64,000 bases of DNA from Okeania sp. SIO2F4 (GTDB taxonomy: Bacteria; Cyanobacteriota; Cyanobacteriia; Cyanobacteriales; Microcoleaceae). This document shows, in pieces, positions 31,985 through 56,395 of the stretch. The first letter of the stretch is position 1; every line of letters starts with the position of its first letter. Position numbers and translations under genes: made by a program. The notes below the pieces were generated by a model that had not been told where the DNA came from, ran no database searches, and was given only the letters and a program-made list of their open reading frames with translations. Where the stretch lies: positions 223-64,222 of the forward strand of contig NZ_JAAHGT010000021.1 of the NCBI RefSeq assembly GCF_010672385.1, written 5' to 3'.

Positions 31985-32140
31985 TTATACCACCTCCTTT
32001 GTTGTTGCTAGGGTGGTCAGAATATTTGAGGGTTGGGGTTGGCAATCAGTTGTTAATAGTGCTATAATCATGGTGTTGAAAATTTTGTATCTACGGGGTT
32101 TTGGCTCCGTAGGTTTACTTTTTTTGGGGTTACTTGAGAG

Positions 32141-33889: not shown

Positions 33890-33953
33890 AAGTTTTAAGT
33901 GGTAAAAAAATTGTATTGTTTGCAGTGATTAGGGTTGGGGCGCGACGAAAACA

Positions 33954-35036: not shown

Positions 35037-35102
35037 TTTGCACTCCTGTTAATAATTAACAATTAATAATTAATTGTTGGTTGTTGATTTAATTATTGCA
35101 GT

Positions 35103-35422
35103 CTAGATTTTTATGATTTCAATACAGTCTTGATTAATTGATTCAAAACCTTTTTTATTAATGTAATCGGCTTCATGTAATAGCTCTAGCCAATATTGCG
35201 TTTCGTTAGCTTCTTTGATAGCGATACGCAGTTTATGCACAAAGTCAGCAAGGCTTTCCGCATATTCAGATCACGGATTAAAGCACCAATTGCTGTACCA
35301 CTCCGAAGTATTTGTTTTGATAAAACATACTCTTTTTTATCCTGGTTTTGATATTGTGATAACTTAACTATTTGTAATGCAAAAGTGAAGGATTTGTTTT
35401 TAATTACATTATTTTTTTCCAT
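35103..35422 (-). pseudogene. Frameshifted four-helix-bundle protein (23S rRNA intervening-sequence protein family)
   Basis: The N-terminal part 'NKSFTFALQIVKLSQ...LSKQILRSGTAIGALIRD' runs into junk. The adjacent frame reads 'EYAESLADFVHKLRIAIKEANETQYWLELLHEADYINKKGFESINQDCIEIIKI*', the expected family C-terminus. A 1-nt indel near 35268-35272 accounts for this. Confidence 0.65.
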
Positions 35423-35464
35423 GATTTTAAATTCCTAATTATTAATTATTAATTATTAATTGTT

Positions 35465-38400
35465 TCAGAAGGGTATTAACTCCTCTTCTGTTTCTGTCTG
35501 TTCAGCGTGTTGGGAAATAAAGTCTTCCCAACACGCTGTTGCTGCTTTTTCAATGGTGTCGTAGTATGGTCCGAAAACGTTGGTACTGACGTACCATTTA
35601 CCAAAACCAGCTTTGTTCTTGCTTTTATTGCAAATATGGATTTTTCCACATTTTTGTGTTCCGTTCCAGACTATATAAGTCTCACTCCGGTTATAAATAG
35701 AGCTATCTTTGACCCAATGTAGTCCTTCGGAATGTTCGTAACTATCAGTGTTTGACTCTTCTGTAGTTGTGGATGCCTTAAACTCATCAGAAGTTTGACT
35801 ATCAGTAGTATCATTGATAGCAGCATTATTCAATATGTCTTGCCAAGTGATAGTGTCATTGTTTTTGTGGCTGTCTTTAATTGTCTGCTCCCAAACGCTA
35901 TGGTCAACATAATCATTGATATCAACGCCTTGACCAGCTTCCAAGTCAGAACAGAGTTGATCTACGTCGATACCAAATAGTTCTTTCATGTTTGACTTCA
36001 ACTTGACAGTAGGGAACAGTGTGAAAGTTTTGCCATCTCTAGTTTGCATCAAACATGGGTAGAGGTTTTTATCTCCACGGTAAAACCAAAGTGTGGTTCC
36101 AGAGCGTTTAGTACGGATGTTGTCAAAAGCATTAAATACAGCAGCCAGTTTGTCTAACAAGTCTACTGGGGAATGTTCAGTGCTCTTTGTGTCTGCGTCG
36201 TTGTTTAATTGATTTGAGTCTGGCAGTTTTCCATTGCTCTTGCCAGGAATAGACTTTTTTGTGTGTTCTGAAGTTTGAGTATTTGTTACAACTGGTTTAG
36301 GGTGATAGAGTTGATAAGGAATATTCTCTGCTACTAAAAATGCTTCTAAGTCGCAGTCATATTTAGCTAATTCGCCAATTAATTTCTGTTCTATTTCTAG
36401 TTCATCGTCTTGGTTGTGATGTATGCTTCCTACATTTGTTCCGTAATGAGTTACAGTTAAATCTACCTCATCGTGGCTTGCCTTAAAGTCTTCTAATAAC
36501 TCAATTTCAGTTTTAATTAAATTAAGCCATGTTTGGTCATCGTACTCATCAAAAAAGTATGAAGCAATATTTTCAATTATTTCTGTGTCACCTTTAGTAG
36601 TGGTATTATTTTCAGGCTGTTTACGATAATTTTCTATCTGAAGTTGTTTACCATTGACTACATCTAGAATAAGTGCTTTTATATCTAACTCGTATCGTTC
36701 CATGAGTAATTTTTCTAAGCTAATATCGCTCACTAAACCTTTATGGGGGTCTGTAAATATACGACCTAAAATTTCATCTTTTAAAGATATATGCAGGGTT
36801 ATTTTAGGTATGCCTAAACTTCGTTCAAATTGAAATTTATCTATCATGGATAATTGTTTTTTTACTTTGTTAATTAGCTGTTCTTCTAAGCTGGTTTGAG
36901 TCTTTTTATGTTGTGATAATGATGATTTTTGGTATTCCTTATCAGGAATAAATTCAAACCGAATTACCCATACTATTTGTTGGTTATCGCCCTCAAAAAA
37001 TTTCCCAATAAATTGTTGTTTTGATAGTTCGGGAAAACCTTCTGCTGCTAATTCTGAAGATGGCATATCTACCAATTTCTCTTGGTAAGGTTTATGGGTG
37101 AGGCGGATGTAACCAACTCGCTTACCACCAACGTGATAACCTTTTGTCAGTGCAGGATAAAGAAATTTTCCTGGTCTGGCATTCCAGTCATCAATGAAGC
37201 GTTGGGCGTAGTTATCTTTCCAAAACCGTCGTGTGACTGTTTTGTTGCCTGAAAGTAGTTCAGTTAGGGTTTTGCCAAAACTTATTGCTTTGCCATTGAT
37301 GGTTAGGTTTTGTTCATTGATACTTAGAGTTGTTCCTGTTTCCTGCTCCTGTGATGGGATTTGGTCAACTTTTAGTACAGTTCTACTTTCAACAGTAGGT
37401 TCATCACCATTGCTTTCAGTTTGGTTATCAGTAGTGTCATTAGCATTGTTTACTGTATCAATTATCCTCTCTGTATCTGCTAGTTCCTCTGTGTTTAACT
37501 GAGTATTTGCGACTGTGGATAACCTTTGAGTGCTTGCAGCTACTATCAAACTACTAAAGTCAAGTGATGTCATACTTTCAGCGGTTGGTTCATCACTGTC
37601 TAAGTTGTCTGAACTGATTGCTGATACTTGACTACTCCCTAACTTGGTTAAGGGTTGAGCTGAAACATACCTTAGTAAGTTGATGTTTATGTGTTCGATA
37701 CCGTTATCCCCAAGTACTCCAGAGTCTAGCCATTGAATAGTCGCTATTTCTCCTGAGACTGACTGCAAAATGCCTCGGCGTTCACGTCCTTTTTCCCAAA
37801 TGGGTGCAACAACACATCCTCGTGGTTTGAGAGCGTTATTATTGCTGCCAATATATGCGAATGGATCTACATCACAGCTTGGATGTTTTGAGTTATAATG
37901 TATAGATTTTATTAATCCTTTGATGTCTATTCCGTAGGATGTTATTAGGTGAGAAACTAATTTTGATTCTGCTGATAATTTACCTTGATTTATTGTCACA
38001 AAACCAAGTTGAAAATGACCTTGGTAAAAAGCTATTTGAGAGCAATTTTTATCTAGTTGCAAGTCAGTTTTGTAAGAGTTTATTGCTGTTTCTAAGGTGT
38101 CTAAATGTTTTGTGTTTAACTCAGCCTCAATTCCACTATTATTGTTGGGGTTATTGGGAGTAGATGGTGGTGTTTTAGAACCTCCATTATTATCTGGATT
38201 ATCTTCATCATTTTCTATTGTTTGTTCAATTAATTCTTTACGTTGTTGGCGTAGAGTTTCTAGCAATTGATTCCAGGCTGGACTAAAGTCTACTAATTCA
38301 TTGAGTAGATTATTTGCAGTTTTAAAGTCTTCTTCATTCCAGTTATCCCAGTTTTCTTTGGTCAGTAATTCTTTGATAGTTTGGTTTGTAATAATGTAGT

Positions 38401-41356
38401 TGTCTGTTTCAATTTCGGTTTCACCTTTGACAATATCAGTGGTTAATTGATTGAGGAGGATTGAGTATTGATTCAAGAATTTATCAACCAAATTTTCATC
38501 TAATATGATTTCGGGTTCTGAATCTGGATTATTGACTGTAACGGAGCCTAAGTAGTTTTCTAGCCATTCTATGCCGTTGTATATTTTAAAAATTCTTCCT
38601 TGACGGATGATGACTAATCGAAATTTATTTTTAAATTTATTAGAGAGAGAATGAAGTGCGTTATGAAGAGTGTCTAGATGGTCGAATTCTTCATCTAAAC
38701 TGCCTATCCCCAAGAGGTAGTTATTAATTAATCCTTCATCTATTATTTCTTTATTGTTGATATCTTGTATCAATTCATCTATATTGATACTGTATGCTTC
38801 TTTGAGTAGTTGTTTTTCTCTTTCTGGTAGTTCTAATATTTCGTTATCTTTATAAAAAACTGTGCCAAATAGTTCTTTACCTCTTTGAATATATGCTGTA
38901 GATGAGTCATTTCTGACTATGGTTAAGTCAGTTTTGTAACTATTAATAATTTCGATAAATATTTCAAAATAATCAGTTGTATTAGTTGATTCAAACCACC
39001 ATTTTGCTCTTTCTAGGGCAGATTTTATGTCTTTGGCATTATTGGAAAATTCGGTTCCGTGACTGATTATGAAGGGAGTGTTACTGTAATTATGCAGTTC
39101 AGTGATTTTAACCCAATCACTGTTGTTATTGTCTGAAGAGTAGATTAATACTTGACTATCACCTACGGTTTCTATTACCCAATTTTCTAATAGTAAGGGG
39201 GTAATTTTTTCTGTGAGTGTTAATGTTTTTTCTACTTCTACTGGTTCAGATTCTACGCCTGATTCAATTTTATTACTGCTATTTTTGTTAGGATTAGGAG
39301 GATTTATGGATGGTTTTGTTACACTTTTTCGTTGTTCAAACCAACAGTAAATTAAATCTATGGCTGTCTCAATGTCTTGGTAGTGTATGGTATAGAGTAA
39401 TTCTTGGTTATGTCTAATATAAATGTCTCCAATTGTAGAATTACATAATTCGACATGATTGTTTTGGTGGTTTTTTTCTTTAATAATTACTTGGTTAAAT
39501 AAATGTTCTTCAAGTATCCATGTTGGGGGTAAGTATTGTTCAATTTTCTTGAAGAATGTTAATGTTTCTTGAGTCTTTTTTTTGTGCGTTACTTCTCCAT
39601 ATTTATTGAAGACTTGGCTAAATTTATCTACGTTTTCTCCCCAATAAACTAGACAATGTGACTGTCTTGCTGGTGATTTTGGTTTGTAGTTGCTGTCTAG
39701 GAATTTAATGCGCCCTTTCCAGAAACAGATGGGTTGACTCCACAGTGGCTCAAACCATTTGGTGTCTGTTGATGCTGTTAGTAAGGCGATCGCTTCTGTG
39801 ACGTTACTACTATCAATTTCTGAAATTAGTTTCTCTATCCATTTACCAGGACAGCTATAGGGTGGGTTGAGGAATACTTTCCCGTGCCATACACAACTGA
39901 GTCCGTCTTCTGTTATGGTTTTGTGGTATTTTGCTGGTATGTGTTTTTTGTCGTCGGCACAGGGATCTAAGTCAATTGTTCCGAGGACTTCTTCTATTAA
40001 TTCAACTATTTGTGGTGGTGTGTACCAACAGTCGGATGATTTGGAGGTGGTTTGAGTAGGGTTAGACTCACTAGCATTTTCTATCCTAGTGTCAAAGGTA
40101 GTTGCTATTTTGTCTATTTCTTCTTCGTTAGAATATGGTGATTCTTCTGTTGCTAAACCTTTCAATACTTGGGTAAAGGTGGCAGCATCACCGGAACAGT
40201 AGACTTGATTTTTGCCAGGGGCGATAAACCACCAACTATTGTTTTGATAACCTACTTCTGCTATTTTTTGGTCTTTGATATAGAAGAAACCAAAACTGGT
40301 AATATTGTCACTGGGGTATTGACAGAATTTACCTCCTATTTCAGTTGCAGCATTATGGAGTTCTTGCTTGAGACCACCATTTTCTTTGTTTGATGGATTA
40401 TTTTTAGTATTTTTCCACACTGCATCTATGAATTTTTGAGTGGTGGAATTAGTGTTTTTACTCCATTTTTTGGCGGTTTCTGATTTTTTGAGTCTGATTT
40501 CATAATCATCTTCTTTGACATCATAGAACACTTTAAAATATCTGTGTTCGTTATCTAGAATTACTTCGCCACTGGATGAGTCGTACCAGGTTATAGTAGG
40601 GTTGTTGTTATTACCTGCACTGGAAATCTTACTTATGTTTAAGGTAGAGGGAGCAGTATCGGAAATTTCAACCATGTCTGAGGTAGGGGGTGTCGGTACG
40701 TCTCCAGATTTTTCTATATGTGTAGAGTCGGTTTCGGCGTTGTTGTCGGAAGTAGTGTCGTTGTTGTTTTCTTCTTGTAAGGTTAGAATTATTATTCCAA
40801 GGTCTCCATCTGTTTCCTGTAAACTCCATTGATATAATTTTTCTTTTAATTCAATTGTTCCTGTAAAGTTGTTAGTTAATTGTGTGATTCTGGTGACTTC
40901 TGTCTCTGTTAGTGCCATTTCCCAAGTGGAGTCTGTTTCGTTGTATTTCCAACCTTTTGGGAAGGTTGAGGTTAGTTCAGTGATGATTTCTTTGATTGTT
41001 ATTGTGGGAGTTGGGTTGTTTTCGGGTTGTGGTTTTTCTATGGTTTGGTGGTTGTGTTTTTTTTGTCCGTCAGTAATTTCAATTACTCTTGATTTTGATG
41101 GTGGGGGTAATGCTAGTCCTAGTTGAGAGGCTATCGCCTTTTTGTACTCTGGATACTCAGCAAGTATTGGTAGTAGGGTATCTAATGCTCTGGAGATTTT
41201 GGTTGGTATTGACTGTAGTTCTTTTAGTTGAGATTTCTTTTGTTCTAACAGAGTTGTGAGAATGCTGATGCTGTCTTTTTTCTCTTTCTCTAACTGGCTT
41301 GTGAGAATGCTGATGAGGTCTTTTTCTTGTTGTTTGATAGCAGATGTGTTCATCAT
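35465..41356 (-). CDS. 1963-aa polyvalent-type protein: Dam-like N6-adenine methyltransferase, ASCH domain and at least five copies of an unrecognised ~55-aa module
   Basis: 'CWYTPPQIVELIEEVLGTIDLDPCAD...WHGKVFLNPPYS...GRIKFLD' is the phage Dam-type MTase pattern (NPPY at nt 39857-39868). 'ELLSGNKTVTRRFWKDNYAQRF...GYIRLTHKPYQEKLVDMPSSELAAEGF' is ASCH-like (nt ~36960-37300). The repeated module ends '...(Y/F)(G/S/E)(I/L)D(I/V)..L(I/C).D(I/L/V)'. Confidence 0.7.
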   Translation of the reverse strand: MMNTSAIKQQEKDLISILTSQLEKEKKDSISILTTLLEQKKSQLKELQSIPTKISRALDTLLPILAEYPEYKKAIASQLGLALPPPSKSRVIEITDGQKKHNHQTIEKPQPENNPTPTITIKEIITELTSTFPKGWKYNETDSTWEMALTETEVTRITQLTNNFTGTIELKEKLYQWSLQETDGDLGIIILTLQEENNNDTTSDNNAETDSTHIEKSGDVPTPPTSDMVEISDTAPSTLNISKISSAGNNNNPTITWYDSSSGEVILDNEHRYFKVFYDVKEDDYEIRLKKSETAKKWSKNTNSTTQKFIDAVWKNTKNNPSNKENGGLKQELHNAATEIGGKFCQYPSDNITSFGFFYIKDQKIAEVGYQNNSWWFIAPGKNQVYCSGDAATFTQVLKGLATEESPYSNEEEIDKIATTFDTRIENASESNPTQTTSKSSDCWYTPPQIVELIEEVLGTIDLDPCADDKKHIPAKYHKTITEDGLSCVWHGKVFLNPPYSCPGKWIEKLISEIDSSNVTEAIALLTASTDTKWFEPLWSQPICFWKGRIKFLDSNYKPKSPARQSHCLVYWGENVDKFSQVFNKYGEVTHKKKTQETLTFFKKIEQYLPPTWILEEHLFNQVIIKEKNHQNNHVELCNSTIGDIYIRHNQELLYTIHYQDIETAIDLIYCWFEQRKSVTKPSINPPNPNKNSSNKIESGVESEPVEVEKTLTLTEKITPLLLENWVIETVGDSQVLIYSSDNNNSDWVKITELHNYSNTPFIISHGTEFSNNAKDIKSALERAKWWFESTNTTDYFEIFIEIINSYKTDLTIVRNDSSTAYIQRGKELFGTVFYKDNEILELPEREKQLLKEAYSINIDELIQDINNKEIIDEGLINNYLLGIGSLDEEFDHLDTLHNALHSLSNKFKNKFRLVIIRQGRIFKIYNGIEWLENYLGSVTVNNPDSEPEIILDENLVDKFLNQYSILLNQLTTDIVKGETEIETDNYIITNQTIKELLTKENWDNWNEEDFKTANNLLNELVDFSPAWNQLLETLRQQRKELIEQTIENDEDNPDNNGGSKTPPSTPNNPNNNSGIEAELNTKHLDTLETAINSYKTDLQLDKNCSQIAFYQGHFQLGFVTINQGKLSAESKLVSHLITSYGIDIKGLIKSIHYNSKHPSCDVDPFAYIGSNNNALKPRGCVVAPIWEKGRERRGILQSVSGEIATIQWLDSGVLGDNGIEHININLLRYVSAQPLTKLGSSQVSAISSDNLDSDEPTAESMTSLDFSSLIVAASTQRLSTVANTQLNTEELADTERIIDTVNNANDTTDNQTESNGDEPTVESRTVLKVDQIPSQEQETGTTLSINEQNLTINGKAISFGKTLTELLSGNKTVTRRFWKDNYAQRFIDDWNARPGKFLYPALTKGYHVGGKRVGYIRLTHKPYQEKLVDMPSSELAAEGFPELSKQQFIGKFFEGDNQQIVWVIRFEFIPDKEYQKSSLSQHKKTQTSLEEQLINKVKKQLSMIDKFQFERSLGIPKITLHISLKDEILGRIFTDPHKGLVSDISLEKLLMERYELDIKALILDVVNGKQLQIENYRKQPENNTTTKGDTEIIENIASYFFDEYDDQTWLNLIKTEIELLEDFKASHDEVDLTVTHYGTNVGSIHHNQDDELEIEQKLIGELAKYDCDLEAFLVAENIPYQLYHPKPVVTNTQTSEHTKKSIPGKSNGKLPDSNQLNNDADTKSTEHSPVDLLDKLAAVFNAFDNIRTKRSGTTLWFYRGDKNLYPCLMQTRDGKTFTLFPTVKLKSNMKELFGIDVDQLCSDLEAGQGVDINDYVDHSVWEQTIKDSHKNNDTITWQDILNNAAINDTTDSQTSDEFKASTTTEESNTDSYEHSEGLHWVKDSSIYNRSETYIVWNGTQKCGKIHICNKSKNKAGFGKWYVSTNVFGPYYDTIEKAATACWEDFISQHAEQTETEEELIPF

Positions 41357-41465
41357 GTCTTTTCTTCCTTGAAGTGTTGTTGAAAAAAAATCAAAATGCT
41401 TGAAGCAATAATCAATTTCCCTGAAGGAGTTCAGTTTTTTCTGAGTTACTGAACTCCAGCAGGTG

Positions 41466-42176
41466 TTATTGAACTAGGTGGAAAGATTTAGCGACTTGAA
41501 AGTTGTGAACGTGCAGCACTACTTTTAAGGCGTTCTCTATGTCTGCAAAGTAATCTACAGGTTGAAACGGGCGACGCAGGGCAAATTTTCCGATGTTACC
41601 GTGTCGCCAGATTTCTGCTACTTTTTCTCCGTTTTGCGATAGCTCTATTCGGAAATCATTAAGGTTAACTTCACTTATTTTTAGGCTAGTGCTAGCGATC
41701 GCCGTATTAACTATCTCAAATAATTTCCGGTTGTTGGCAACTGTTCTGTCTTCAGCAGGTAACGAGCGCTCATAGACAGTCTTTGCTGCTAAGATATGCT
41801 TGCAGAGCATCCGGCTATTGTCGTAATAATTGTGATATTTGTGGTCGGGACAGGTGCAGGTCCATTCTCCATATTCTAGAGTTACCACATAGTCTGTATT
41901 TTTTTTGGGATTACTGACTATGGCTTTGAAGTCGTAGTTGGTGTTGACTGGCCTGACTTTTAATCCTTTGCTTCGCTCTAGTCTTTCTATTTGAGCGATC
42001 GCTTGGTTGAATACTTGCTCTAGGTAGTGGGCTACTTGGCAGTAGAGTTGGACTTCTTGATGCCAGCCGGGGATTTCTGAGCATTTGATGTGGACGATGC
42101 CGAGAACATTTTCGTAAAATGTCTCTCGTGCCGACTTGACATCATGGCCAAGTCGGTCTATTATTGTTGTTAGCAT
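41466..42176 (-). CDS. SWIM zinc-finger protein
   Basis: 'EWTCTCPDHKYHNYYDNSRMLCKHILAA' matches the CxCx(n)CxH SWIM signature. Confidence 0.65.
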   Translation of the reverse strand: MLTTIIDRLGHDVKSARETFYENVLGIVHIKCSEIPGWHQEVQLYCQVAHYLEQVFNQAIAQIERLERSKGLKVRPVNTNYDFKAIVSNPKKNTDYVVTLEYGEWTCTCPDHKYHNYYDNSRMLCKHILAAKTVYERSLPAEDRTVANNRKLFEIVNTAIASTSLKISEVNLNDFRIELSQNGEKVAEIWRHGNIGKFALRRPFQPVDYFADIENALKVVLHVHNFQVAKSFHLVQ

Positions 42177-46500: not shown

Positions 46501-46765
46501 TGGCAAGAAAGTAGTTTTACCTGGGATGACGAGTTGCTTTGAATCCTCAAACTTGGGCTAAATTGGAAGCTTATTTTGTTTTGAGAGATTTGAGGTTAAC
46601 GGCAAATGGTAATGTTTCAACCGGAATCTGTTTGCTGAACCAATAGCTACTCCTAGTGATGTGAGGTTGCCTGTGGCATAGGTTGAATTTTGTCAAGGAA
46701 GCGATCGCCTTAATCAAAAATCGCGATCGCTCAAACTAAGGTAAATATTATTTCAAAAAAAATCA

Positions 46766-47650
46766 ATGACAAATCATAAATTTAATTTGCCTAACTTTGA
46801 GAAAGCAGAAGATTTGCTTAATGATTTATTTGAAGAAGTAAAAAGTAAGGAAAGTGAATTAGCGGGAGGAGAAGCTCAAGAGTTAAAAAGAGGAGCAACT
46901 GCAATTCAAAGATTGAAGGAAACTACTGTTACATTTGGCAATCCTCGTAGTAAATTAATTCCTCTTACTGAAAAAGGTTTTGAAGCAAAAGGAGTGGAAT
47001 TAAATTACGAAATTAAGCAGTTAATGAAGCAGTTTGATTTCTATTCTATGGTTGTGAGCATTGATATAAGACCTCAACCAAGTGTTTTGATTTCAAAATT
47101 AGAATGTCAGCTTGATTTTGGTCCTCAAGGAAAAGACGAGCCAATAGTGCATCGTATTATCCCAGATAGTAAATGGCAAACGGTATTAAAGACAGGAGTC
47201 AACTTGAATTTAGGACTAGATGCCAATTTAGAAGTGGGAGTTGGAGTTGATGTTTCTGAGTTAACAAAAATAGCTAATCTTCCTGATTATGACAACTTAA
47301 AAGCTAATATAGAGACTAAAGATGAACTTAAAGCATTTATTATTTTAGATAGCTTAAATTATAAATTTGGTAAGTTTAATCTTTTGGCTCAAGGAGAAGA
47401 TAACTCTCAGTGTTACTGGCGAATTGAAGAACCATAAATTCAGGATAAATCTACAGTTGAATTTGACATTATTTTTAAAGTTCCTAAGACATGGGAGTAT
47501 ATTGATTTAATTGGTAATGCATGGATTGAACCAAAGATTGATTGGCTTAATGGCGAATTAAATCATGTAATGACAGCTTTATCAAGTCGTTTAAAAAATG
47601 TGTTTGGGAGTCAAGAGAAAGCAGCTAAGAGTTATGCAGTTGGGATAAAA
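46766..47650 (+). pseudogene. Unknown beta-rich protein upstream of the CHAT protease, interrupted by an in-frame TAA at 47435-47437
   Basis: The 223-aa ORF ends '...SQCYWRIEEP*'. The same frame stays open for 70 more protein-like codons (IQDKSTVEFDIIFKVPKTWEYIDLIGNAWIEPKIDWLNGELNHVMTALSSRLKNVFGSQEKAAKSYAVLG*). Confidence 0.5.
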
Positions 47651-47755
47651 GAAGAATGGATTGGTGAAAAGCAAATTATCTTGCCTAAACCGTAGATGTT
47701 TTAGTTCTTTATATTTTATTATTATTAATTTCTGTCAATTTCAGATTTAAGTCTA

Positions 47756-49147
47756 ATGACAATGAATGAATATTTTTATCAGATTATTGTCCCCAATGAT
47801 AATATGGTTAGAGTGAGAAAATTAACTCCTCAATCAACCGACCCAGAACAGACAACGGGAAAGTTAAATCTCACTAAAATCAATGATAAGATTAGAGAAA
47901 TTATTAAAGCTCCTGCTAACTTAGAAGCTGGAAAAATCACTAAAGTGGGAGAAGCTTTATTTGAGGCTTTGTTTGACGGTCAATTAAGAGAAGATTTTTT
48001 AGCATACTATCAAGAAATTGTTAAAAAACAACAACAAATATTAGCAGTTATTTTGGAAATAAATGAGGAAGCAATGCCAGAAGTGGTAGCCTATCCTTGG
48101 GAGTTAATGTGTTTACCTCAGAAATATAATCAGGGTGAAATTTATTTCGCAACTGACCGTAAATTAAGCTTTTACCGCTGTCGATATCAATTAGAAGAAT
48201 CAGCAAAACTATCTATTAAAATTAATCAAGGTGAACAGTTAAAAATTGCTTTAGTTGTCTCTAAACCAACAGGTGATTCTCAATTAAGTAATGTAGAGTA
48301 TCAGGAAGTACAGCAATACTTAAAACTTGTAGATAGTCAACAAGAGCAAGTAAAATTTATGCCTGTTATGGATTCTCTGAATTTTTATAGTATTGTAGAA
48401 AAATTAGAAGCAGATAAACCGGATATTTTTCATTTTATTGGTCATGGTCAATTAGTTGAGAAAGAAGGAGAAGATGTAGGGCAGGTTGCTTTTGTTAATG
48501 AGTTTGGTCAAGCTGATTGGAAAGATGCTAGGATGTTTGGTCAATTGTTTAGTGGTCACACACCTAAAATTGTCATTTTACAAGCTTGTGAAACAGGAAA
48601 GCAATCTGAAACTAATGCTTTTAGTGGTGTTGCTTCTCGCTTAATGCAGCAAGGAATTTCAATAGTTGTAGCAATGCAATATAAGGTTTCTAATCAAACA
48701 GCAATTACTTTTGTTAAAGAGTTTTATTCAAAAATAATTGAAGGTAATTCTGTTGAGATGGCATTGCAGAAAGCTCGGTTTAAACTAGGTATTGAAAATG
48801 GGTATAAGCGAAGAGATTTTGCGATTCCTGTGGTATATATTAATGCTTTAGATGGCTATTTATTTACTTCAGAAGTAAATTCAGTTTCTCCAGTTGCCAA
48901 TAATGATCTCATAGCCAATAATTCTAGCAATTCTAGACTAAATTCGTTACGAAGACAAAAAGAAGAATTGGAAGAGCAAATAGCAGTTTTGGAAAATCTC
49001 CGCAATAATTGTCATCAACAACTTAAAGGAGAGGGGGATAGTGATAAAAGAGAGCAGCTAAGAGTCAAAATGAAAAATTACTTGAAGGAAATTGAGGTTC
49101 TATATGATGAGATAGATAACATCGAAAAAAAAATCAATCAAATTTAG
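47756..49147 (+). CDS. CHAT-domain (caspase-fold) protease with a C-terminal coiled-coil adaptor module
   Basis: 'PDIFHFIGHGQL' (His codon 48443-48445) and 'KIVILQACETGK' (Cys codon 48587-48589) form the caspase-like His/Cys dyad in CHAT spacing. The C-terminal ~70 aa are heptad-like and are duplicated in the next gene. Confidence 0.75.
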   Translation: MTMNEYFYQIIVPNDNMVRVRKLTPQSTDPEQTTGKLNLTKINDKIREIIKAPANLEAGKITKVGEALFEALFDGQLREDFLAYYQEIVKKQQQILAVILEINEEAMPEVVAYPWELMCLPQKYNQGEIYFATDRKLSFYRCRYQLEESAKLSIKINQGEQLKIALVVSKPTGDSQLSNVEYQEVQQYLKLVDSQQEQVKFMPVMDSLNFYSIVEKLEADKPDIFHFIGHGQLVEKEGEDVGQVAFVNEFGQADWKDARMFGQLFSGHTPKIVILQACETGKQSETNAFSGVASRLMQQGISIVVAMQYKVSNQTAITFVKEFYSKIIEGNSVEMALQKARFKLGIENGYKRRDFAIPVVYINALDGYLFTSEVNSVSPVANNDLIANNSSNSRLNSLRRQKEELEEQIAVLENLRNNCHQQLKGEGDSDKREQLRVKMKNYLKEIEVLYDEIDNIEKKINQI

Positions 49148-49192
49148 TTAAATCTTTAATTATATGTATGTATTAATAATTTAATTACTAAG

Positions 49193-50262
49193 ATGTCAGA
49201 TAGTCAAAAATTGGAAAGTTGGAAAAAGGAAAAAAAAGAATTAGAAGAACAAATAGCAGTTTTGGAAAATCTCCGCAATAATTGTCATCAACAACTTAAA
49301 GGAGAGGGGGATAGTGATAAAAGAGAGCAGCTAAGAGTCAAAATGAAAAATTACTCGAAGGAAGTTGAGGTTCTATATGATGAGATAGATAACATCGAAA
49401 AAAAAATCAATCAAATTCAGTTAGATGACAAAAGCTTGAGTCCAAACGATCATTTAGACAATCCTAACAATCAGCAACAGTTAAAATTTGATGAGTGTTT
49501 GCCTTATATCGATTTTGATAAAGCTTTAAATGCTTTTAAAAAAATTATGGCTAAGTTAAATGGAGAAGGAGATGTTGCTTTATTCCTCATTGAAGAAAAT
49601 AATGATAAGGAGGGAAATTTATTTTTAAGAAGACTGAGGAATGATTTAGCTTCTAATAGTTACAGGCAACATTTTCGTCTCTGTCATTCAACATATACTT
49701 CTGGTAATTTTGAAGGATTAATCAAAGGAATAGGTGAATTTTTAAACGTCACAAAAGAAGAAATTACTAATTAGTTATTAATAAAATAAGTGATTCTTTA
49801 CAAAATAATTCGTTTTTGTTTATAGAAATCAACTGTGATATTCTTGACCCAAGTGACATCGACTCATTCATTCCCAAGTTTATTAATTTTTTTTGGAAGC
49901 CTTTGAGAGAAAAAGTAAATGAAGTAGCTAAGGATTATAAAGGAATTAAAGTTGTAGCTGTAATAATTTCTGATATATTACTTAATTCCAGATTTTCAAA
50001 AGAGGAATTATCCTGCTATTATAATCGTTCTCTGAGGGTCTTTTCTAGGGATAAATTAGTCAAAATACCTTTAGAAAAATGGACACAGACAGATATTGCG
50101 AGATATTTGAGATGTGCTAATTCTAGTTTAAAAACACCGGAAGTAAACAGCATCGCTAAAAAAATTTATAATGCAACCAATAAAGGATCGCCTACAAGTA
50201 TCTGTAGAGCTTTAGAACAAGAAAAATGGCAAACTTTAATATATCCAACCCGTACCTGTTAA
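49193..50262 (+). pseudogene. Adaptor-module protein split by a frameshift (49193-49774 plus 49771-50262); a candidate VMAP/iSTAND-like partner of the MoxR-vWA pair
   Basis: The N-terminus repeats the CHAT C-terminal module (166/168 nt identical). The first frame stops at 49772-49774. The second frame is open from 49771 ('LVINKISDSLQNNSFLFIEINCDILDPSD...') but has only a TTG start at 49816. Confidence 0.5.
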
Positions 50263-50268
50263 ACAATT

Positions 50269-51261
50269 ATGGATTCAAGCATGACTTACCATTTTGAAAA
50301 CAACCCTAAAAAACGTCCTTCTAAACCTCATCCTGATTCACCTACAAAAGTTGAACCTTATATTGCACCTGATGAGTTAATTGATGCAGTAAATTTAGCT
50401 ATTTTTCTGCGTCGCCCCCTATTATTAGAAGGAGAAGCAGGTTGTGGTAAAACTCGATTACCAGTTGCAGTTGCTTATGAATTAGGATTACCATTCTATC
50501 GTTGGGATATTCGCTCAACTACGAAAGCACAAGAAGGTTTATATGAATATGATGCTATTCTTAGACTTCACGATGTTCAAACTCAAAAATTAGAAACAGA
50601 AAATAATAATACCAGAAATCCCAGTAATCCTGAAGATTATCGAAGTTTTGGAGCAATTGGTAATGCTTTTCGTTCAAAAGATTGTCCGGCAGTAGTTTTA
50701 ATTGATGAAATAGATAAAGCTGATATAGATTTTCCTAATGATTTACTAACAGTTTTAGATGAACCTTGGGAGTTTAAAATTAGAGAAACTGGAGAAACAA
50801 TTACTGCTGAAACTAATTGTCAACCTATTGTAATTATTACCAGTAATAAAGAGAAAGGAAATTTACCAGCTCCATTTCTACGTCGTTGTATTTATTATTA
50901 TCTGAAATTTCCGGAGCAACCTGAGCAACTTCAAAAAATTGTTGATATTCACTATCGATATAAACAAGAGTCAGAAGTTCCAGAAAAAATCAATACTCCA
51001 CATAATGAATTAGTACAACAAGCAGCTAAACTATTTATTAAAATTCGAGCCAACAAAGGATTGTTTAAAATTCCAGGGACAAGCGAATTTTTAGATTGGT
51101 TAGATGCACTTTGCAGTTGTCAAACAAAGCAAAATCCTAAGCCTCCTTATCCTATTAATGAGTTAGAAGAAGAAAAATTAATTCCTTATCGAGAGTTAAT
51201 ATTTAAAATTCGTCAAGATTGGCAAAAAAATACAACTTTTCCTCAACTTAGTGATTCATAA
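50269..51261 (+). CDS. MoxR-type AAA+ ATPase (AAA_5-like)
   Basis: Walker A 'LLLEGEAGCGKT' (nt 50431-50454), Walker B 'VVLIDEIDKAD' (nt 50691-50720) and 'PAPFLRRC' sensor/arginine region, in a single AAA+ module of ~330 aa. Confidence 0.75.
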   Translation: MDSSMTYHFENNPKKRPSKPHPDSPTKVEPYIAPDELIDAVNLAIFLRRPLLLEGEAGCGKTRLPVAVAYELGLPFYRWDIRSTTKAQEGLYEYDAILRLHDVQTQKLETENNNTRNPSNPEDYRSFGAIGNAFRSKDCPAVVLIDEIDKADIDFPNDLLTVLDEPWEFKIRETGETITAETNCQPIVIITSNKEKGNLPAPFLRRCIYYYLKFPEQPEQLQKIVDIHYRYKQESEVPEKINTPHNELVQQAAKLFIKIRANKGLFKIPGTSEFLDWLDALCSCQTKQNPKPPYPINELEEEKLIPYRELIFKIRQDWQKNTTFPQLSDS

Positions 51262-51318
51262 ATTTTCTCAAGTTTGAACTAACTTTCTTGATTTTATAAT
51301 AAAATTTTCCAATCACTC

Positions 51319-52386
51319 ATGTTTGAACCTAATTCTTATTTAACTACTCTTTTTTACCGTTTGCGTGAAGGCGGTTTTAATTTGAGTATTAGGGAATATT
51401 TTTCAGTAAAAGATGCAATAAAAGGAGGTTGGGGAACTAAAAGTAAAGAAGACTTTAAAAAACTCTTACGCTTGCTATGGTGTAACTCTTGGGAGCAACA
51501 ACAGCATTTAGCTGTAATATTTGATACTATTGTCATTGAACCGGAAAAAACTGAAGAAACAACACCAAATCAACCTCCAAAAATTCAAAAAACTGGGAAT
51601 TATGACCAATTTGACTCAGATTCATCAACTCCTACTTTTCCTACTACACCAATTGAACCCTCTTCAATAGAAATAACTAAACCAGCGACTGAGAAGTTAT
51701 CGCCATTACCCGTTACTAACCCTCAACTAATACAAGAATATCAAGATGATGCCGAATTTTATACTTATTATCCCATTTCTCGCCGTTCTATGGTTTATAG
51801 TTGGCGATATTTACGTCGCCCCATTGCTGACGGAGTTAAGGATGTTTTGGATATCAAAATGACCGTAGAAAAAGCTACAAAACAAGGATTTTTCTTACAA
51901 CCTGTTTACCGTCGGCGAGAAAAAAATCATGCTCATTTACTAATTTTAGTAGATCAGGAAGGTTCGATGACTCCCTTTCATCATTTCAGTCGAGACTTAG
52001 TAGAAACAGCTCAATATGAAAGCTCTATAGAAAGAGTAGATGTTGCTTATTTTCATAATTTGCCAGCAGAATACATTTATCAAGATCGTTTCTTAACCGA
52101 TAAAATTGCCTTAGAAACTGTTTTAAATCAATGTGATAGTGAAACTAGAGTTTTAATCGTTAGTGATGGGGGTGCTGCTAGGGGATATCGTCACCGAGAA
52201 AGAGTTTCAGCAACAACTGAAGTAATTTGGGAAATTCAACAACAGACTAATCTAATAGCATGGCTCAATCCTGTTCCTCAACTACGTTGGAATAATACTA
52301 CAGCTAGTATTATTTCTCATTTAGTACCAATGTTTTCTATGAATGAAGAGGGTTTAAGACAAGCTATTATGACGTTGCAAAGATAA
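51319..52386 (+). CDS. vWA-domain protein with a degenerate MIDAS motif, partner of the MoxR ATPase
   Basis: 'HLLILVDQEGSMTPF' sits at the DxSxS position (D-Q-E-G-S; Asp codon 51952-51954). 'VLIVSDGGA' is a later vWA strand. The helical N-terminal domain and the gene order after MoxR are typical. Confidence 0.65.
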   Translation: MFEPNSYLTTLFYRLREGGFNLSIREYFSVKDAIKGGWGTKSKEDFKKLLRLLWCNSWEQQQHLAVIFDTIVIEPEKTEETTPNQPPKIQKTGNYDQFDSDSSTPTFPTTPIEPSSIEITKPATEKLSPLPVTNPQLIQEYQDDAEFYTYYPISRRSMVYSWRYLRRPIADGVKDVLDIKMTVEKATKQGFFLQPVYRRREKNHAHLLILVDQEGSMTPFHHFSRDLVETAQYESSIERVDVAYFHNLPAEYIYQDRFLTDKIALETVLNQCDSETRVLIVSDGGAARGYRHRERVSATTEVIWEIQQQTNLIAWLNPVPQLRWNNTTASIISHLVPMFSMNEEGLRQAIMTLQR

Positions 52387-52754
52387 TATCGAGACTTTAG
52401 AAAAAAATAGTAAAAAAAGATATAATGTATACTTGATAAGTATTTTACGTTAAGATAATATAGAAGATAAAGTAGTAATTCTGGTTCCAATAAAAAAGAA
52501 GAAAAACAACTGTACCTCAGTAATTTTGGAAACGTTATAACTTTGAGTGGCGATTTTTTTTGTCTATAAAAGTGTTAGTTATAACTGATGTAAGAAACTA
52601 TTTTAAAATTCCAGAGTGGTCACAATTTATAAGTGTTATATATTAATATTTTGTGAGTATTAATCCTGGAAATAACCTAAATAATTAATATATAAATATC
52701 TTTCTGGGCAACAGTTTTTTTGCTGGTGTTGAGATAAATCCTGGAGGTTTAATA

Positions 52755-55700
52755 ATGGTTCAATTTCAAATTAAAGCAGATAGCGATATTCCTGCCTCAA
52801 ACCAATTATTTAATCAAATTCGAGCTGCCATAGCCTCCCGTCAGTTTCCTCCTGGCTATCGATTACCCAGTACGAGACAACTTGCGATGCAAACTGGTTT
52901 GCATCGCAATACTATAGCTAAGGTATATCGTCAACTAGAAGATATTGGTCTTGTGGAAGCTCTAGCAGGTAAGGGGATTTATGTCAAAGCTCAAGGTGAT
53001 GAGGGGTCGAAGTTAACATCTCCTATGAGTAACAGATATCCAGATATAGAAATGACTGAAATAACAGATGAAATTATAGCTCAGAATAAAGTAGAGCGAT
53101 TTCAAATTAAAGCAGATAGCGATATTCCTGCCTCAAACCAATTATTTAATCAAATTCGAGCTGCCATAGCCTCTCGTCAATTTCCTCCTGGTCATCGATT
53201 ACCCAGTACGAGACAGCTTGCCAACCAAACTGGTTTACATCGCAATACTATAGCTAAGGTATATCGTCAACTAGAAGATATTGGTCTTGTGGAAGCTTTA
53301 GCAGGTGAGGGGATTTATGTCAAAGCTCAAGGTGATGAGGGAGGGCCGAAGTTAACATCTCCTACGAGTAACAAATATCCAGATATAGAAATGACTGAAA
53401 TAACAGATGAAATTATAGCCCAGAATAAAGTAGAGCGATTTGTCAGTCGCTTTGAGTCTTCCTATGAATTGTTAGCTTGTCATGTAGCTTTACCTCTAGT
53501 ATTAACTCCAGAATTAGTTAACTATCTTAGAATTGAGTTTCTCAAAAGTGAAAAAGTTCCTTGGATTGCTGAAGCTGATTTATTGTTATCTAATCTATGT
53601 CGTCCAGTTGGTTATGAACTCTATGTAATGGATGAAGGAGTGAGAGCTTATTTACTACAAAAACTAGCACAAGACAAAAGATTTGGTCAGAAAAGAATTA
53701 AAGAGATTGCCCGTTTATTACTGAGTTATGTTCAGCATTTAGCTAAAACTAATCCTTTTCTGGGAATGAAAGAGTTAGAAACTCAGAAATGGGGAGCAAT
53801 GTTATATTTAGACACAGAGCAAACTGTCCGAGAAATAGGTACAGCTATATGTGAATGTGTAGATCGAGCAGAATTGGCTCGTTTACTCAAAATTACTGAA
53901 GACTTTAAACAACAAATAGCTTCATCAGGCCAGTTTCAGGATTTTTTAGATTATGCTCAACTTTGTAGTGAGTTACTTAGAGAACCTGAAAAAGTTAAAC
54001 TAGAACAAATCGCAGACTCATATCAGGTAGCAGGACTTGAATTAAGTGTACCAGAAAGTATTAACATCTCAATACTAGATTTTCTTAACTTAGACAATTT
54101 AGAGTCGTTTGAATTTACAGCTAAAGTTGGTAATATTGTTAAATTAAAAACTATTTTATTAGTTGAAGACGAACAAGAAGTAATCCAAGAAGTATCAAAA
54201 AAATTATCATCCCAATATGGCATTACCGTCAGAGGAACAGATAGTGTCAATGAAGTTATTCAATTAGCAGAATCAGGTGAAATTGACTTGATTTTAATTA
54301 ATTATTGGTTACCTAATAGTAGCTATCAAGACAGACCAGTTAATGGGTTTGAAATTATCAGGATTTTGAAGGCTAATTCTGATATTTATCCGAGCTTACC
54401 TATTGTTGGTTTCTCCTCTAATATTAAAAGGTTTTTACCTCTGAATTTAGTTGATGAATTTGTTAAAAGTGGTGCAAATGGTTTTTATTATAAGAAAGAA
54501 TTGTTGCTTAATAATGATTATCAAAAGTTCGTTAACTATCTCGAAGAAATATTTGCTCAAGCTCTTGAAAATACATCCTCTCAACCAGGAAAGAATTACG
54601 GTATCCTCATTGGCATTAACCAATATAACCATCTACCAACCCTCCGATACGCGGTTACAGATGTAGACGAAATAAAGGCTCGATGTGAGTTCCAAAACTT
54701 CAGTAAAGTTGACTTATTTTCAGATGTAACTTCGGTAAAAGTCAAGGAATTTTTGGCAGAGAAATTTGAGCAGCCATTTCTATCAACAGAGGATAATTTG
54801 TGGTTTTTCTTTAGTGGCCACAGTCGGTTAAGGCAAGGTGTAGACTATCTGATGTTAGTAGATAGTAAAACTGAGGAAATCACAGAAACAGCCATTTCTG
54901 TTAATTCTCTTGTAGAACAACTTTTTTCTTCAGGTGCGGGAAAGGTAATCTTGTATCTGGATATGGATAGATTATCAGGAGATGCTTCTTCCACCTCTAG
55001 TTATCTTTTACCAATTAAAAATTATCAGGGACTTATAGTTTTCTATGCTTGCGAACCTAATACCGCAGCTTATGAAATTGAGCAACTTCAGCAGGGAAGC
55101 TTTAGTTATGCTTTATATGAAGCCTTATTGTCAACCCAAGGAAACTTAAGTATAAATCAACTTGAGAAGTTTTTGATTGATCGCGTTCCTGAACTTAACC
55201 AACAAAATAATCAACAGACGCAAACCCCACAAACATTTATTTCTCCTAGCAACCTGGCAGAATGGGTTCCCTTTCCTTCAGATTTGCAGGTTTTTCAGCA
55301 CACAACACCAACAGTTAATCGACAGGGAGAAACTATTAGGCAAAATACTAAGCTTGCCCAATATTTCACTGAAATTCTTGCAGATGGCATTAACCTAGAA
55401 ATGGTAGCTATTCCTGGTGGTACTTTTACAATGGGGTCTCCTGAAAGCGAAAAAGATAGTAGAGACAGAGAACGTCCCCAACATGATGTAACTGTTCCTC
55501 CCTTCTTTATGGGCAAATATCCCATTACTCAAGGACAGTGGAGAGCGATCGCCTCTCGAACAGACTTAAAAGTAGACCTAGATTTAAACCCAGACCCATC
55601 TGATTTTAAAGAACTATATCAAGGTATAGATAGATGGAAGAGACCAGTGGAGAATGTAAATTGGTATGAGGCAGTAGAATTTTGTGAAAGACTCTCGAAA

Positions 55701-56288
55701 CTAACTCGAAAGAATTATAGACTACCAAGCGAGGCCGAATGGGAATATGCGTGTCGTGCTGGAACGACTACACCCTTTCACTTTGGAGAAACTATCACAG
55801 GAGACTTAGCTAATTACGATGCGTCAAGAATTTATGCTGATGAACCAAAAAGACAATATAGAAAAGAAACTATCCTTGTAGGTCAATTCCCTCCCAATGC
55901 CTTTAGATTATATGATATGCACGGAAATGTATGGGAATGGTGTGCGGATGACTGGCATAATAATTATAAAAATGCTCCTACTGATGGGATAGCTTGGCTT
56001 GATAGTAATAAAAGGGAAAATATGAATAATAGACCTCTCCAGGAACCAAGGTCTGAAAACTTTTTCAAAAGGATGAGAAATACAGTATCAAATATTTTTA
56101 ATCAAAATGAACCAGAGCCTAGGAGTAATGATAATGATGAAAAAGAAAAGTATACCGTGCTGCGTGGCGGCTCCTGGGTCAGCTATCCTCATGACTGCCG
56201 TTCCGCGTGTCGCTACTTCAACCTTAGGCGCGGCAACCACATCATCACTGTTGGTTTTCGTATTGTGTGTGGTGGCGGGAGTGAATGA
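52755..56288 (+). CDS. 1177-aa multidomain protein: 2x GntR-type wHTH, helical domain, receiver-like domain, caspase-like domain, C-terminal FGE-sulfatase (SUMF1-like) domain
   Basis: 'PSTRQLAMQTGLHRNTIAKVYRQLEDIGLVE' occurs twice (GntR HTH). 'ILLVEDEQEV...DLILINYWLP' is REC-like. 'YGILIGINQY...AVTDVDE...FFFSGHS...LYLDMDRLSG...VFYACEPN' is caspase-like. 'IPGGTFTMGSPE...RPQHDVTV...NVNWYEAVEFC...YRLPSEAEWEYACRAGT...HGNVWEWC...LRGGSW...CRSACR' is FGE-sulfatase. Confidence 0.75.
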   Translation: MVQFQIKADSDIPASNQLFNQIRAAIASRQFPPGYRLPSTRQLAMQTGLHRNTIAKVYRQLEDIGLVEALAGKGIYVKAQGDEGSKLTSPMSNRYPDIEMTEITDEIIAQNKVERFQIKADSDIPASNQLFNQIRAAIASRQFPPGHRLPSTRQLANQTGLHRNTIAKVYRQLEDIGLVEALAGEGIYVKAQGDEGGPKLTSPTSNKYPDIEMTEITDEIIAQNKVERFVSRFESSYELLACHVALPLVLTPELVNYLRIEFLKSEKVPWIAEADLLLSNLCRPVGYELYVMDEGVRAYLLQKLAQDKRFGQKRIKEIARLLLSYVQHLAKTNPFLGMKELETQKWGAMLYLDTEQTVREIGTAICECVDRAELARLLKITEDFKQQIASSGQFQDFLDYAQLCSELLREPEKVKLEQIADSYQVAGLELSVPESINISILDFLNLDNLESFEFTAKVGNIVKLKTILLVEDEQEVIQEVSKKLSSQYGITVRGTDSVNEVIQLAESGEIDLILINYWLPNSSYQDRPVNGFEIIRILKANSDIYPSLPIVGFSSNIKRFLPLNLVDEFVKSGANGFYYKKELLLNNDYQKFVNYLEEIFAQALENTSSQPGKNYGILIGINQYNHLPTLRYAVTDVDEIKARCEFQNFSKVDLFSDVTSVKVKEFLAEKFEQPFLSTEDNLWFFFSGHSRLRQGVDYLMLVDSKTEEITETAISVNSLVEQLFSSGAGKVILYLDMDRLSGDASSTSSYLLPIKNYQGLIVFYACEPNTAAYEIEQLQQGSFSYALYEALLSTQGNLSINQLEKFLIDRVPELNQQNNQQTQTPQTFISPSNLAEWVPFPSDLQVFQHTTPTVNRQGETIRQNTKLAQYFTEILADGINLEMVAIPGGTFTMGSPESEKDSRDRERPQHDVTVPPFFMGKYPITQGQWRAIASRTDLKVDLDLNPDPSDFKELYQGIDRWKRPVENVNWYEAVEFCERLSKLTRKNYRLPSEAEWEYACRAGTTTPFHFGETITGDLANYDASRIYADEPKRQYRKETILVGQFPPNAFRLYDMHGNVWEWCADDWHNNYKNAPTDGIAWLDSNKRENMNNRPLQEPRSENFFKRMRNTVSNIFNQNEPEPRSNDNDEKEKYTVLRGGSWVSYPHDCRSACRYFNLRRGNHIITVGFRIVCGGGSE
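52764..53438 (+). repeat. In-frame tandem duplication (336-bp unit) of the GntR-wHTH module
   Basis: 52764-53099 and 53100-53438 are near-identical at DNA level (tttcaaattaaagcagatagcgatattcctgcctcaaaccaattatttaatcaaattcgagctgcc...), with a 3-nt indel and scattered substitutions. Confidence 0.9.
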
Positions 56289-56395
56289 AGTCAGAAGTCA
56301 GAAGTTTTTATGAAGTTTGAAGTTTTTGGGATAGGGGAAATAATTTGAGTAATCAACAAATTTCAATTCAAGAAAGAACTAATAATTAACAATTA

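Follow-up and report, generated by a model that had tools for sequence, protein, structure and literature searches.

The protease–effector modules known from bacteria have as their effectors gasdermin, Pepco/Trypco, EACC1, an MBL-fold nuclease or an alpha/beta-hydrolase (Evans et al. 2025, PMC12642450; Johnson et al. 2021, 10.1101/2021.06.07.447441). Proteases, mostly of the CHAT or C14 type, adjoin 43 of 50 bacterial gasdermins (bioRxiv 10.1101/2021.06.07.447441). In ternary conflict systems, as set out by Kaur et al. (2020, PMC7159879), effector-associated domains (EADs) tether the effectors to the core. Here we analyzed a stretch of 64,000 nucleotides from Okeania sp. SIO2F4 (contig NZ_JAAHGT010000021.1, positions 223 to 64,222 of the forward strand; hereafter the window) that encodes, directly upstream of a CHAT protease, a member of an unnamed protein family of about 305 residues. 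We use X as a working name for the family; the window gene X occupies 46766–47695 on the plus strand. The window copy appears to retain the full length of the gene, interrupted once by an evidently recent nonsense mutation, and we think it probable that X in its intact form is a latent effector of cell death, activated by its partner protease.

Like the known modules, the X–CHAT pair co-diverges, joins many sensors (STAND NTPases, FGE-sulfatase, MoxR–vWA) and is enriched in multicellular bacteria. Unlike the effectors of those modules, X matches none of the ten families listed in PMC12642450 by sequence, and it is much larger than Pepco (117 amino acids, aa). Its place beside a caspase-like protease is that of a bacterial gasdermin, whereas it differs from most bacterial gasdermins in having no conserved N-terminal cysteine and a predicted fold nearer to hemolysin-type toxins. 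On pairing, co-divergence, a competent protease and sensor diversity, X fits the protease–effector class; its cleavage and toxicity are putative.

The public record annotates a 223-aa product for the window gene. The open reading frame (ORF) list and the translation place its ATG at 46766, followed by 223 codons (46766–47434, plus strand) and a TAA at codon 224 (47435–47437). The original prediction had noticed that the frame stays open past this stop, and translation agreed; the continuation, then given as about 70 codons ending at 47650 for a product of 294 aa, is in fact 85 codons long (47438–47692) and closes at a TAG (47693–47695), for a read-through product of 309 aa. At the local composition (33% G+C), 85 stop-free codons are expected by chance with p of about 4e-4. 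The read-through product aligned end to end with intact proteins of 300–311 aa: the C-terminal 85 residues, untranslated in the window (codons 225–309 and the native TAG, 47438–47695, plus strand), matched orthologs to the last residue. Identity was 95% to the closest intact ortholog, the 309-aa P0001 (95% also over codons 1–223 alone), and 84% to the protein of Okeania sp. KiyG1.

Codon 224 is Glu in all close orthologs and GAA in the two that we compared as DNA, the loci L010 and L011. The sole notable change between these and the window was the TAA, a G-to-T substitution at 47435; there were no indels and no further stops. All conserved residues past the stop (F233, KVPK 238–241, G250, W260, L272, W298 and L306–P307) are retained in the window, and the synonymous-to-nonsynonymous counts before and after the stop (12:7 vs. 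3:5 in one comparison and 12:12 vs. 7:10 in the other) are too small to reveal relaxed selection. Scanning one genome per species, we found an internal stop in none of the 46 other species copies, and four related metagenome populations likewise have G at 47435. The ORF list and translation showed neither a separate ORF nor a start codon for the C-terminal piece, and no X paralog was found elsewhere within the 64-kb window. Given the long open frame and the end-to-end ortholog alignment, we therefore read the window gene as a full-length gene that, judged from these comparisons, carries a single, evidently recent GAA-to-TAA nonsense mutation at codon 224. The suspicion that the TAA is premature was thus borne out, and a genuine 223-aa gene is refuted since the orthologs do not end at the TAA.

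Two of the close relatives carry unusual residues of their own. Position 298 is Arg in P0001, against Trp in the window and in 98% of the family, and the L010 ortholog (10001–10930) has Cys at the 81%-conserved Gly250; judging from such substitutions, there may be drift in some of the "intact" relatives too.

Among 5.8 billion proteins searched we found 81 relatives of X, nearly all 300–311 residues long and aligned from the first to the last residue, and an exhaustive profile search placed the family in 351 clusters at 50% identity. The species scan gave 54 X loci. Hosts are filamentous cyanobacteria (Okeania, Trichodesmium, Calothrix, Coleofasciculus, Dolichospermum, Microcoleus, Symploca, Moorena and Scytonema, among others) and filamentous Chloroflexota (Ardenticatenaceae, Anaerolineae and Chloroflexaceae, among others), with one further copy in a Desulfobacterales genome; the closest relatives of the window gene are from Okeania. 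Where the source names the relatives, they are always a "hypothetical protein." The window protein had no family match in Pfam, NCBIfam or PADLOC, in agreement with the earlier remark that it holds no recognizable motif, and 118 diverse members gave only scattered, chance-level matches to unrelated Pfam and PADLOC families. One of these, to KwaB, was isolated and limited to a single member, and we treated it as chance. The family profile matched nothing at E ≤ 10 among all PDB sequences, and a literature search found no paper describing the family, which does not prove it undescribed. X has no signal peptide or transmembrane helix (the highest 19-residue hydropathy is 0.83) and its N-terminus is polar and helical; the protein would therefore act from the cytoplasm. 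Positions 2–10 are polar and variable and include no conserved Cys; the cysteines that the family does conserve are 114 and 216.

The CHAT gene directly downstream of X, as the original prediction had it, lies at 47756–49147 on the plus strand (Pfam CHAT, E 8e-23) and encodes a 463-aa caspase-fold protease that ends in an EAD9-like adaptor (the EAD9 match, E 0.0012, falls short of the curated cut-off). Residues 1–381 are 95% identical to the 958-aa CHAT protein of a close relative. Its catalytic residues are His230 (48443–48445) and Cys278 (48587–48589), and these are invariant in 48 partner CHATs, the window's included, so the partner protease is predicted to be catalytically competent. We detected X-linked CHATs with a hidden Markov model built from six X-linked CHAT domains. 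Intact orthologs next to CHAT genes, which the original prediction had proposed to look for, were abundant: a CHAT ORF lies immediately 3' of X on the same strand in 49 of the 54 loci. In L023 the CHAT gene is directly upstream and X is fused to an FGE-sulfatase domain, and in Hormoscilla a Peptidase_C14 caspase is directly upstream, bringing the loci with an adjacent protease to 51 of 54 (49 CHAT downstream, one CHAT upstream and one C14 upstream). The L036 contig ends about 250 bases past X, L065 holds only an X fragment within a large VMAP/NACHT/TPR protein, and X is an orphan at the Desulfobacterales locus. Planktothrix also has its CHAT gene next to X, in convergent orientation.

Single polypeptides combining NACHT, X and CHAT, or X and CHAT, also exist. 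Across 46 X proteins and their partner CHAT domains, the pairwise distances were correlated at r = 0.93 over 1,035 pairs, and the two had the same mean divergence. Scans for promoters and terminators between X and CHAT gave nothing above the shuffled expectation. Within the filamentous cyanobacteria and Chloroflexota, one subfamily of CHAT proteases thus has X as its constant, near-obligate partner on the upstream side. The idea of a protease-activated effector gains good support from this context by analogy, as a conserved caspase-fold protease partner is a known arrangement for such effectors. An intact X–CHAT pair is present in Trichodesmium erythraeum IMS101 (L018, 4001–6368; NC_008312, around 3.483 Mb), which could serve as an experimental model.

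We predicted the structures of two diverged members with AlphaFold2. The model of intact P0001 reached a mean predicted local distance difference test (pLDDT) score of 86.5 and a predicted template-modeling (pTM) score of 0.84, using an alignment of 72 sequences; that of P0168, 20% identical to P0001, reached a pLDDT of 85.1 with 118 sequences. P0001 is modeled as an N-terminal helix pair (residues 11–52) followed by a mainly beta domain, and the beta-strand-like peptides singled out in the original prediction are present in X. When we searched the PDB with Foldseek, the 50 best matches of the P0001 model were almost only pore toxins of the alpha-hemolysin/leukocidin type, with a few collagen-adhesin domains; those of P0168 were exclusively such toxins. 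They included Hla, LukGH, LukE/D, PVL-S, gamma-hemolysin, NetB, NetF, Epx, beta-toxin and the Vibrio cytolysin (VCC), with E values of 8e-7 to 5e-4, probabilities of about 1 and about 280 aligned columns. A Foldseek search of X against a viral structure library gave nothing at E ≤ 1e-3; the beta-rich model therefore does not attract strong matches by itself. The fold search that had been proposed against gasdermin and other pore-forming folds thus led to membrane pore-formers as the best matches, while gasdermin did not appear in the top 50.

Like the alpha-hemolysin/leukocidin toxins (Pfam PF07968), X has about 300 aa and is largely beta, with a glycine-rich amphipathic segment at a relative position similar to that of the stem. 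This segment, residues 141–163 (LKTGVNLNLGLDANLEVGVGVDV; 47186–47254, plus strand), is a candidate membrane-inserting beta-hairpin or stem, glycine-rich and strictly alternating in hydrophobicity. It has the top beta-amphipathic moment in X (3.09), and the alternation is kept across 167 family members. The segment is modeled as a compact hairpin in P0001 and within long strands with a disordered tip in P0168; the central 60 or so residues as a whole are compact in the first model and form the strands 140–155 and 192–210 in the second; a pre-stem/stem segment might show two such conformations. X differs from the toxins in lacking a signal peptide, in showing no similarity to them by sequence or profile and in carrying several helices besides a helical N-terminal region. 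Hemolysins are secreted for offense and are not under the control of a partner protease.

Taken together, we consider it probable that intact X is a latent, protease-activated, membrane-damaging death effector, and that the copy in this genome is dead. In the mechanism that we propose, a sensor module would fire and an adaptor would recruit and activate the CHAT protease; CHAT would then cut cytoplasmic X. The cut protein would oligomerize, its central amphipathic, glycine-rich beta-hairpin would insert into the cell membrane, and the infected or damaged cell of the filament would die. The near-obligate linkage and co-divergence of X and CHAT, the intact catalytic residues, the swapping of modules and the resemblance of the fold to beta-pore-forming toxins are observed; we infer the cleavage of X by CHAT, the membrane action, the direction of control and the role in cell death or defense. 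A narrower proposal, that X forms a new class of cytoplasmic, hemolysin-like beta-barrel pore-formers executing suicide triggered by a caspase-type protease in multicellular bacteria, we advance only tentatively, as a possibility on the doubtful side.

Several observations weigh against an effector that makes hemolysin-like pores. The superposition of the X models on the toxins is weak, with TM-scores of 0.20–0.36 and root-mean-square deviations of 9–25 Å, and the models contain about 10 helices foreign to hemolysin-type toxins. Among the 118 members, none matched Pfam Leukocidin at E ≤ 10, and hhalign gave a probability of 0.2% between the X profile and a LukF/LukS profile built from phage PVL and its relatives, a narrow profile of mostly F-subunits that has limited power. 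Because the rigid-body agreement is poor and the profile comparison negative, we regard the hemolysin likeness of the models as an architectural resemblance, with homology not established. Alternating hydrophobicity is frequent in the strands of ordinary beta-sandwiches. Cleavage by CHAT is a prediction: a cleavage site was sought in X and none could be assigned, the low-confidence loops differing between the two models; the conserved L32-x-G-G loop, of low model confidence, and the conserved W218–R219 are the candidates. Single contigs span orthologous X and CHAT in RNA-seq assemblies of Trichodesmium cultures and in one marine metatranscriptome, which is consistent with co-transcription and is weak evidence. 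Finally, the conserved X–CHAT linkage would also fit a regulator, inhibitor or sensor role, and the fusions of X with FGE-sulfatase and of TIR with X are not specific to an effector.

The strongest competing explanation, somewhat unlikely in our judgment, builds on these last points: X would regulate CHAT as an inhibitor or antitoxin-like protein, a co-factor or scaffold, or a sensor or decoy that signals an invader by being bound or cleaved, and would not itself kill, the lethal step being broad proteolysis by CHAT or the action of another effector. Tight linkage and co-divergence suit any obligate partner, X is found fused to a putative ligand-binding FGE-sulfatase domain and to TIR, and the match to the pore-toxin fold has low TM-scores; moreover, some caspase-like defense proteases need no dedicated effector (PMC12642450). 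A regulator is harder to reconcile with the X–EAD2 and X–EAD7 fusions, which place X where Kaur et al. put effectors (PMC7159879), with structural matches to pore toxins that are consistent in two independent models, and with the conserved amphipathic, glycine-rich central segment, which is hard to explain in a soluble regulator. Earlier "co-occurring" protease partners, Pepco/Trypco and EACC1, are also cleavage-activated pore-formers (PMC12642450). For these reasons we prefer X as the protease-activated effector.

For the stop codon itself, the alternative is that the TAA arose by error in sequencing or assembly, or belongs to a minority allele, and that the organism carries an intact gene of 309 codons. 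The difference from the intact gene is a single base, the 85 codons past the stop show no further damage with the conserved residues all intact, and the contig is a draft. All related populations sampled, in contigs of four marine-sediment metagenome runs with related strains, have G at 47435 against T in the window. A single assembly is the source of the TAA, and no sequencing runs of the source genome itself were found, the best runs containing only 32% of the sampled words. Consensus assemblies, however, seldom hold substitution errors, and the public record annotates the 223-aa product. In the same system the iSTAND gene is disrupted too, in keeping with decay of the system as a whole. We consider such an error improbable and retain the nonsense mutation.

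With the stop taken as real, X loses its last 85 residues, which hold the predicted strands 230–240, 245–256 and 292–298 of the AlphaFold model and residues conserved in the family alignment up to L306–P307. Because of this loss and the frameshift in the iSTAND gene, we consider the X and iSTAND system of the window most likely dead, and most probably inactive as a whole.

The original prediction had likened the locus to bacterial gasdermins, activated by removal of a C-terminal peptide. As operon logic, with a protease as the neighbor, the analogy stood; in fold, sequence and N-terminal cysteine it failed. That X is a divergent bacterial gasdermin, activated by loss of a C-terminal inhibitory peptide so that the truncation mimics or destroys its control, is very improbable, even though its size of about 305 aa and its place upstream of a CHAT or C14 protease fit the gasdermin operon layout. 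No gasdermin was among the 50 best Foldseek matches of either model, though the PDB copy should hold bacterial and mammalian structures; none of the 118 members had a Pfam or PADLOC gasdermin match; and the C-terminal 85 residues form predicted core strands, not a short peptide. With the N-terminal cysteine also wanting, we rejected gasdermin homology. Equally implausible is a functional 223-residue product, for example constitutively active or dominant-negative: the stop does fall in a lower-confidence surface stretch (mean pLDDT 66 over residues 221–230) right after the conserved C-x-W-R motif, but three predicted beta-strands and many of the most conserved positions, up to the final two, are gone, no such form occurs in the 46 other species, a constitutively toxic form would not persist, and the C-terminal piece has neither a start codon nor an ORF of its own, so that a useful shorter form is unlikely.

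The surroundings of the preferred effector–protease pair showed how it is deployed. The window segment 46723–48885, comprising X and the CHAT protease domain, is 96.9% identical to L010, in a related strain. The similarity stops after 48885 and resumes at 57415, and the flanks on either side are about 97% identical between the strains. The intervening 8.5-kb block of the window (48886–57414) holds the EAD9 tail, iSTAND, MoxR, vWA, a 1177-aa protein and an FGE-sulfatase protein. In its place L010 has 1.9 kb (12121–14020), the rest of a 958-aa CHAT gene whose C-terminal ~580 residues are unrelated to those of the window. Okeania KiyG1 has the same cassette at 90% identity with the same break point, followed by an EAD–VMAP–MoxR system. 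Three related strains thus carry the X–CHAT cassette, at 90–97% DNA identity, each with a different module downstream and with the break immediately past the CHAT domain. On the left, the cassette shared with L010 has its edge (46723) at a GCGATCGC (HIP1) cyanobacterial palindrome, 46723–46730, just upstream of X.

Across species, the domains on partner CHATs include EAD10, EAD7, VMAP-C, iSTAND, NB-ARC, NACHT/TPR and FGE-sulfatase, and X itself is fused to EAD7, EAD2, TIR or FGE-sulfatase. X and the CHAT domain form a two-gene cassette coupled to interchangeable sensor or switch modules, either by EADs or by being fused to them directly. Protease–effector modules (PMC12642450) and EAD-coupled effectors (PMC7159879) have been described with this layout. 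In Okeania KiyG1 the VMAP gene (L001, 11012–12159) is split, like the window iSTAND gene, and is called as two pieces that overlap.

Within the swapped block, a direct repeat of 197 nucleotides links the protease to its neighbor. Copy 1 (48957–49153, plus strand) encodes the EAD9-like tail of CHAT and is 96% identical to copy 2 (49230–49426, plus strand), which encodes the EAD9-like head of the iSTAND protein (EAD9 E 0.00045 in a 193-aa ORF, below the curated cut-off). A recent event, either a local duplication or a gene conversion, seems to have given the protease the adaptor of its docking partner. The EAD9–iSTAND gene (49193–50262, plus strand) is a probable frameshift pseudogene, consisting of two ORFs in different frames (49193–49774 and 49816–50262). 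The iSTAND profile matched (E 9e-5, 23.3 bits against a cut-off of 24, plus a second fragment) at positions 3–94 in the first ORF and 120–153 in the second, and three-frame translation placed the change of frame near 49770–49816.

Further genes follow on the plus strand: a MoxR-type AAA+ ATPase (50269–51261; Pfam AAA, AAA_5 and AAA_2, with a weak bpMoxR match), a CoxE-like vWA protein (51319–52386; Pfam VWA_CoxE, E 5e-10) and the 1177-aa protein (52755–56288), which combines two GntR-type helix-turn-helix domains, a receiver, a caspase-like region and an FGE-sulfatase domain of the C-lectin fold (Pfam, with a PADLOC caspase match at residues 613–736). The last lies in the same swapped block and its membership in the system is uncertain; it is followed by the stand-alone FGE-sulfatase protein of 286 aa (56396–57256). 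FGE-sulfatase domains of the C-lectin fold have been reported as targets of diversity-generating retroelements in multicellular bacteria (PMC10907252). On the minus strand upstream of X, at 27995–42176, are a Prim-Pol/primase protein of 1329 aa, a ResIII helicase of 582 aa and a protein of 1963 aa that carries a Dam-type methyltransferase domain. These upstream neighbors look like part of a mobile element, and L010 and L011 have a similar giant protein upstream of X–CHAT.

Judged by its predicted domains, the window module is a ternary conflict system of the iSTAND MoxR–vWA type, joined to CHAT through a putative EAD9–EAD9 pair. Like the systems of that type in PMC7159879, it has consecutive EAD–iSTAND, MoxR AAA+ and vWA genes, a peptidase carrying the matching EAD and a filamentous cyanobacterial host; unlike them, its iSTAND gene is frameshifted, and the EAD9 and iSTAND Pfam scores fall just below the curated cut-offs. 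We found no X-like protein among the components in the searched passages of PMC7159879, and X would appear from its sequence to be a new, unnamed family in the effector position of a known type of system.

Being a pseudogene, the window copy is itself of minor importance; set against its close relatives, the window shows one protease–effector cassette re-plugged into different sensor systems. If X does act as a hemolysin-like pore-former, protease-gated pore formation would have a third structural solution in addition to gasdermin and Pepco/EACC1, and the death effectors of immunity might be linked in evolution to secreted toxins of the alpha-hemolysin/leukocidin family. Bacterial and animal immunity share protease-gated death effectors as a recurring theme, with a handful of effector families characterized. 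The X family is sizeable, it is restricted to filamentous multicellular bacteria, the bloom-forming Trichodesmium among them, and it is almost always tied to one CHAT subfamily; should its members prove to be hemolysin-like pore-formers, they would add a new effector type and offer a route, open to testing, by which cyanobacteria of ecological importance could undergo programmed cell death.

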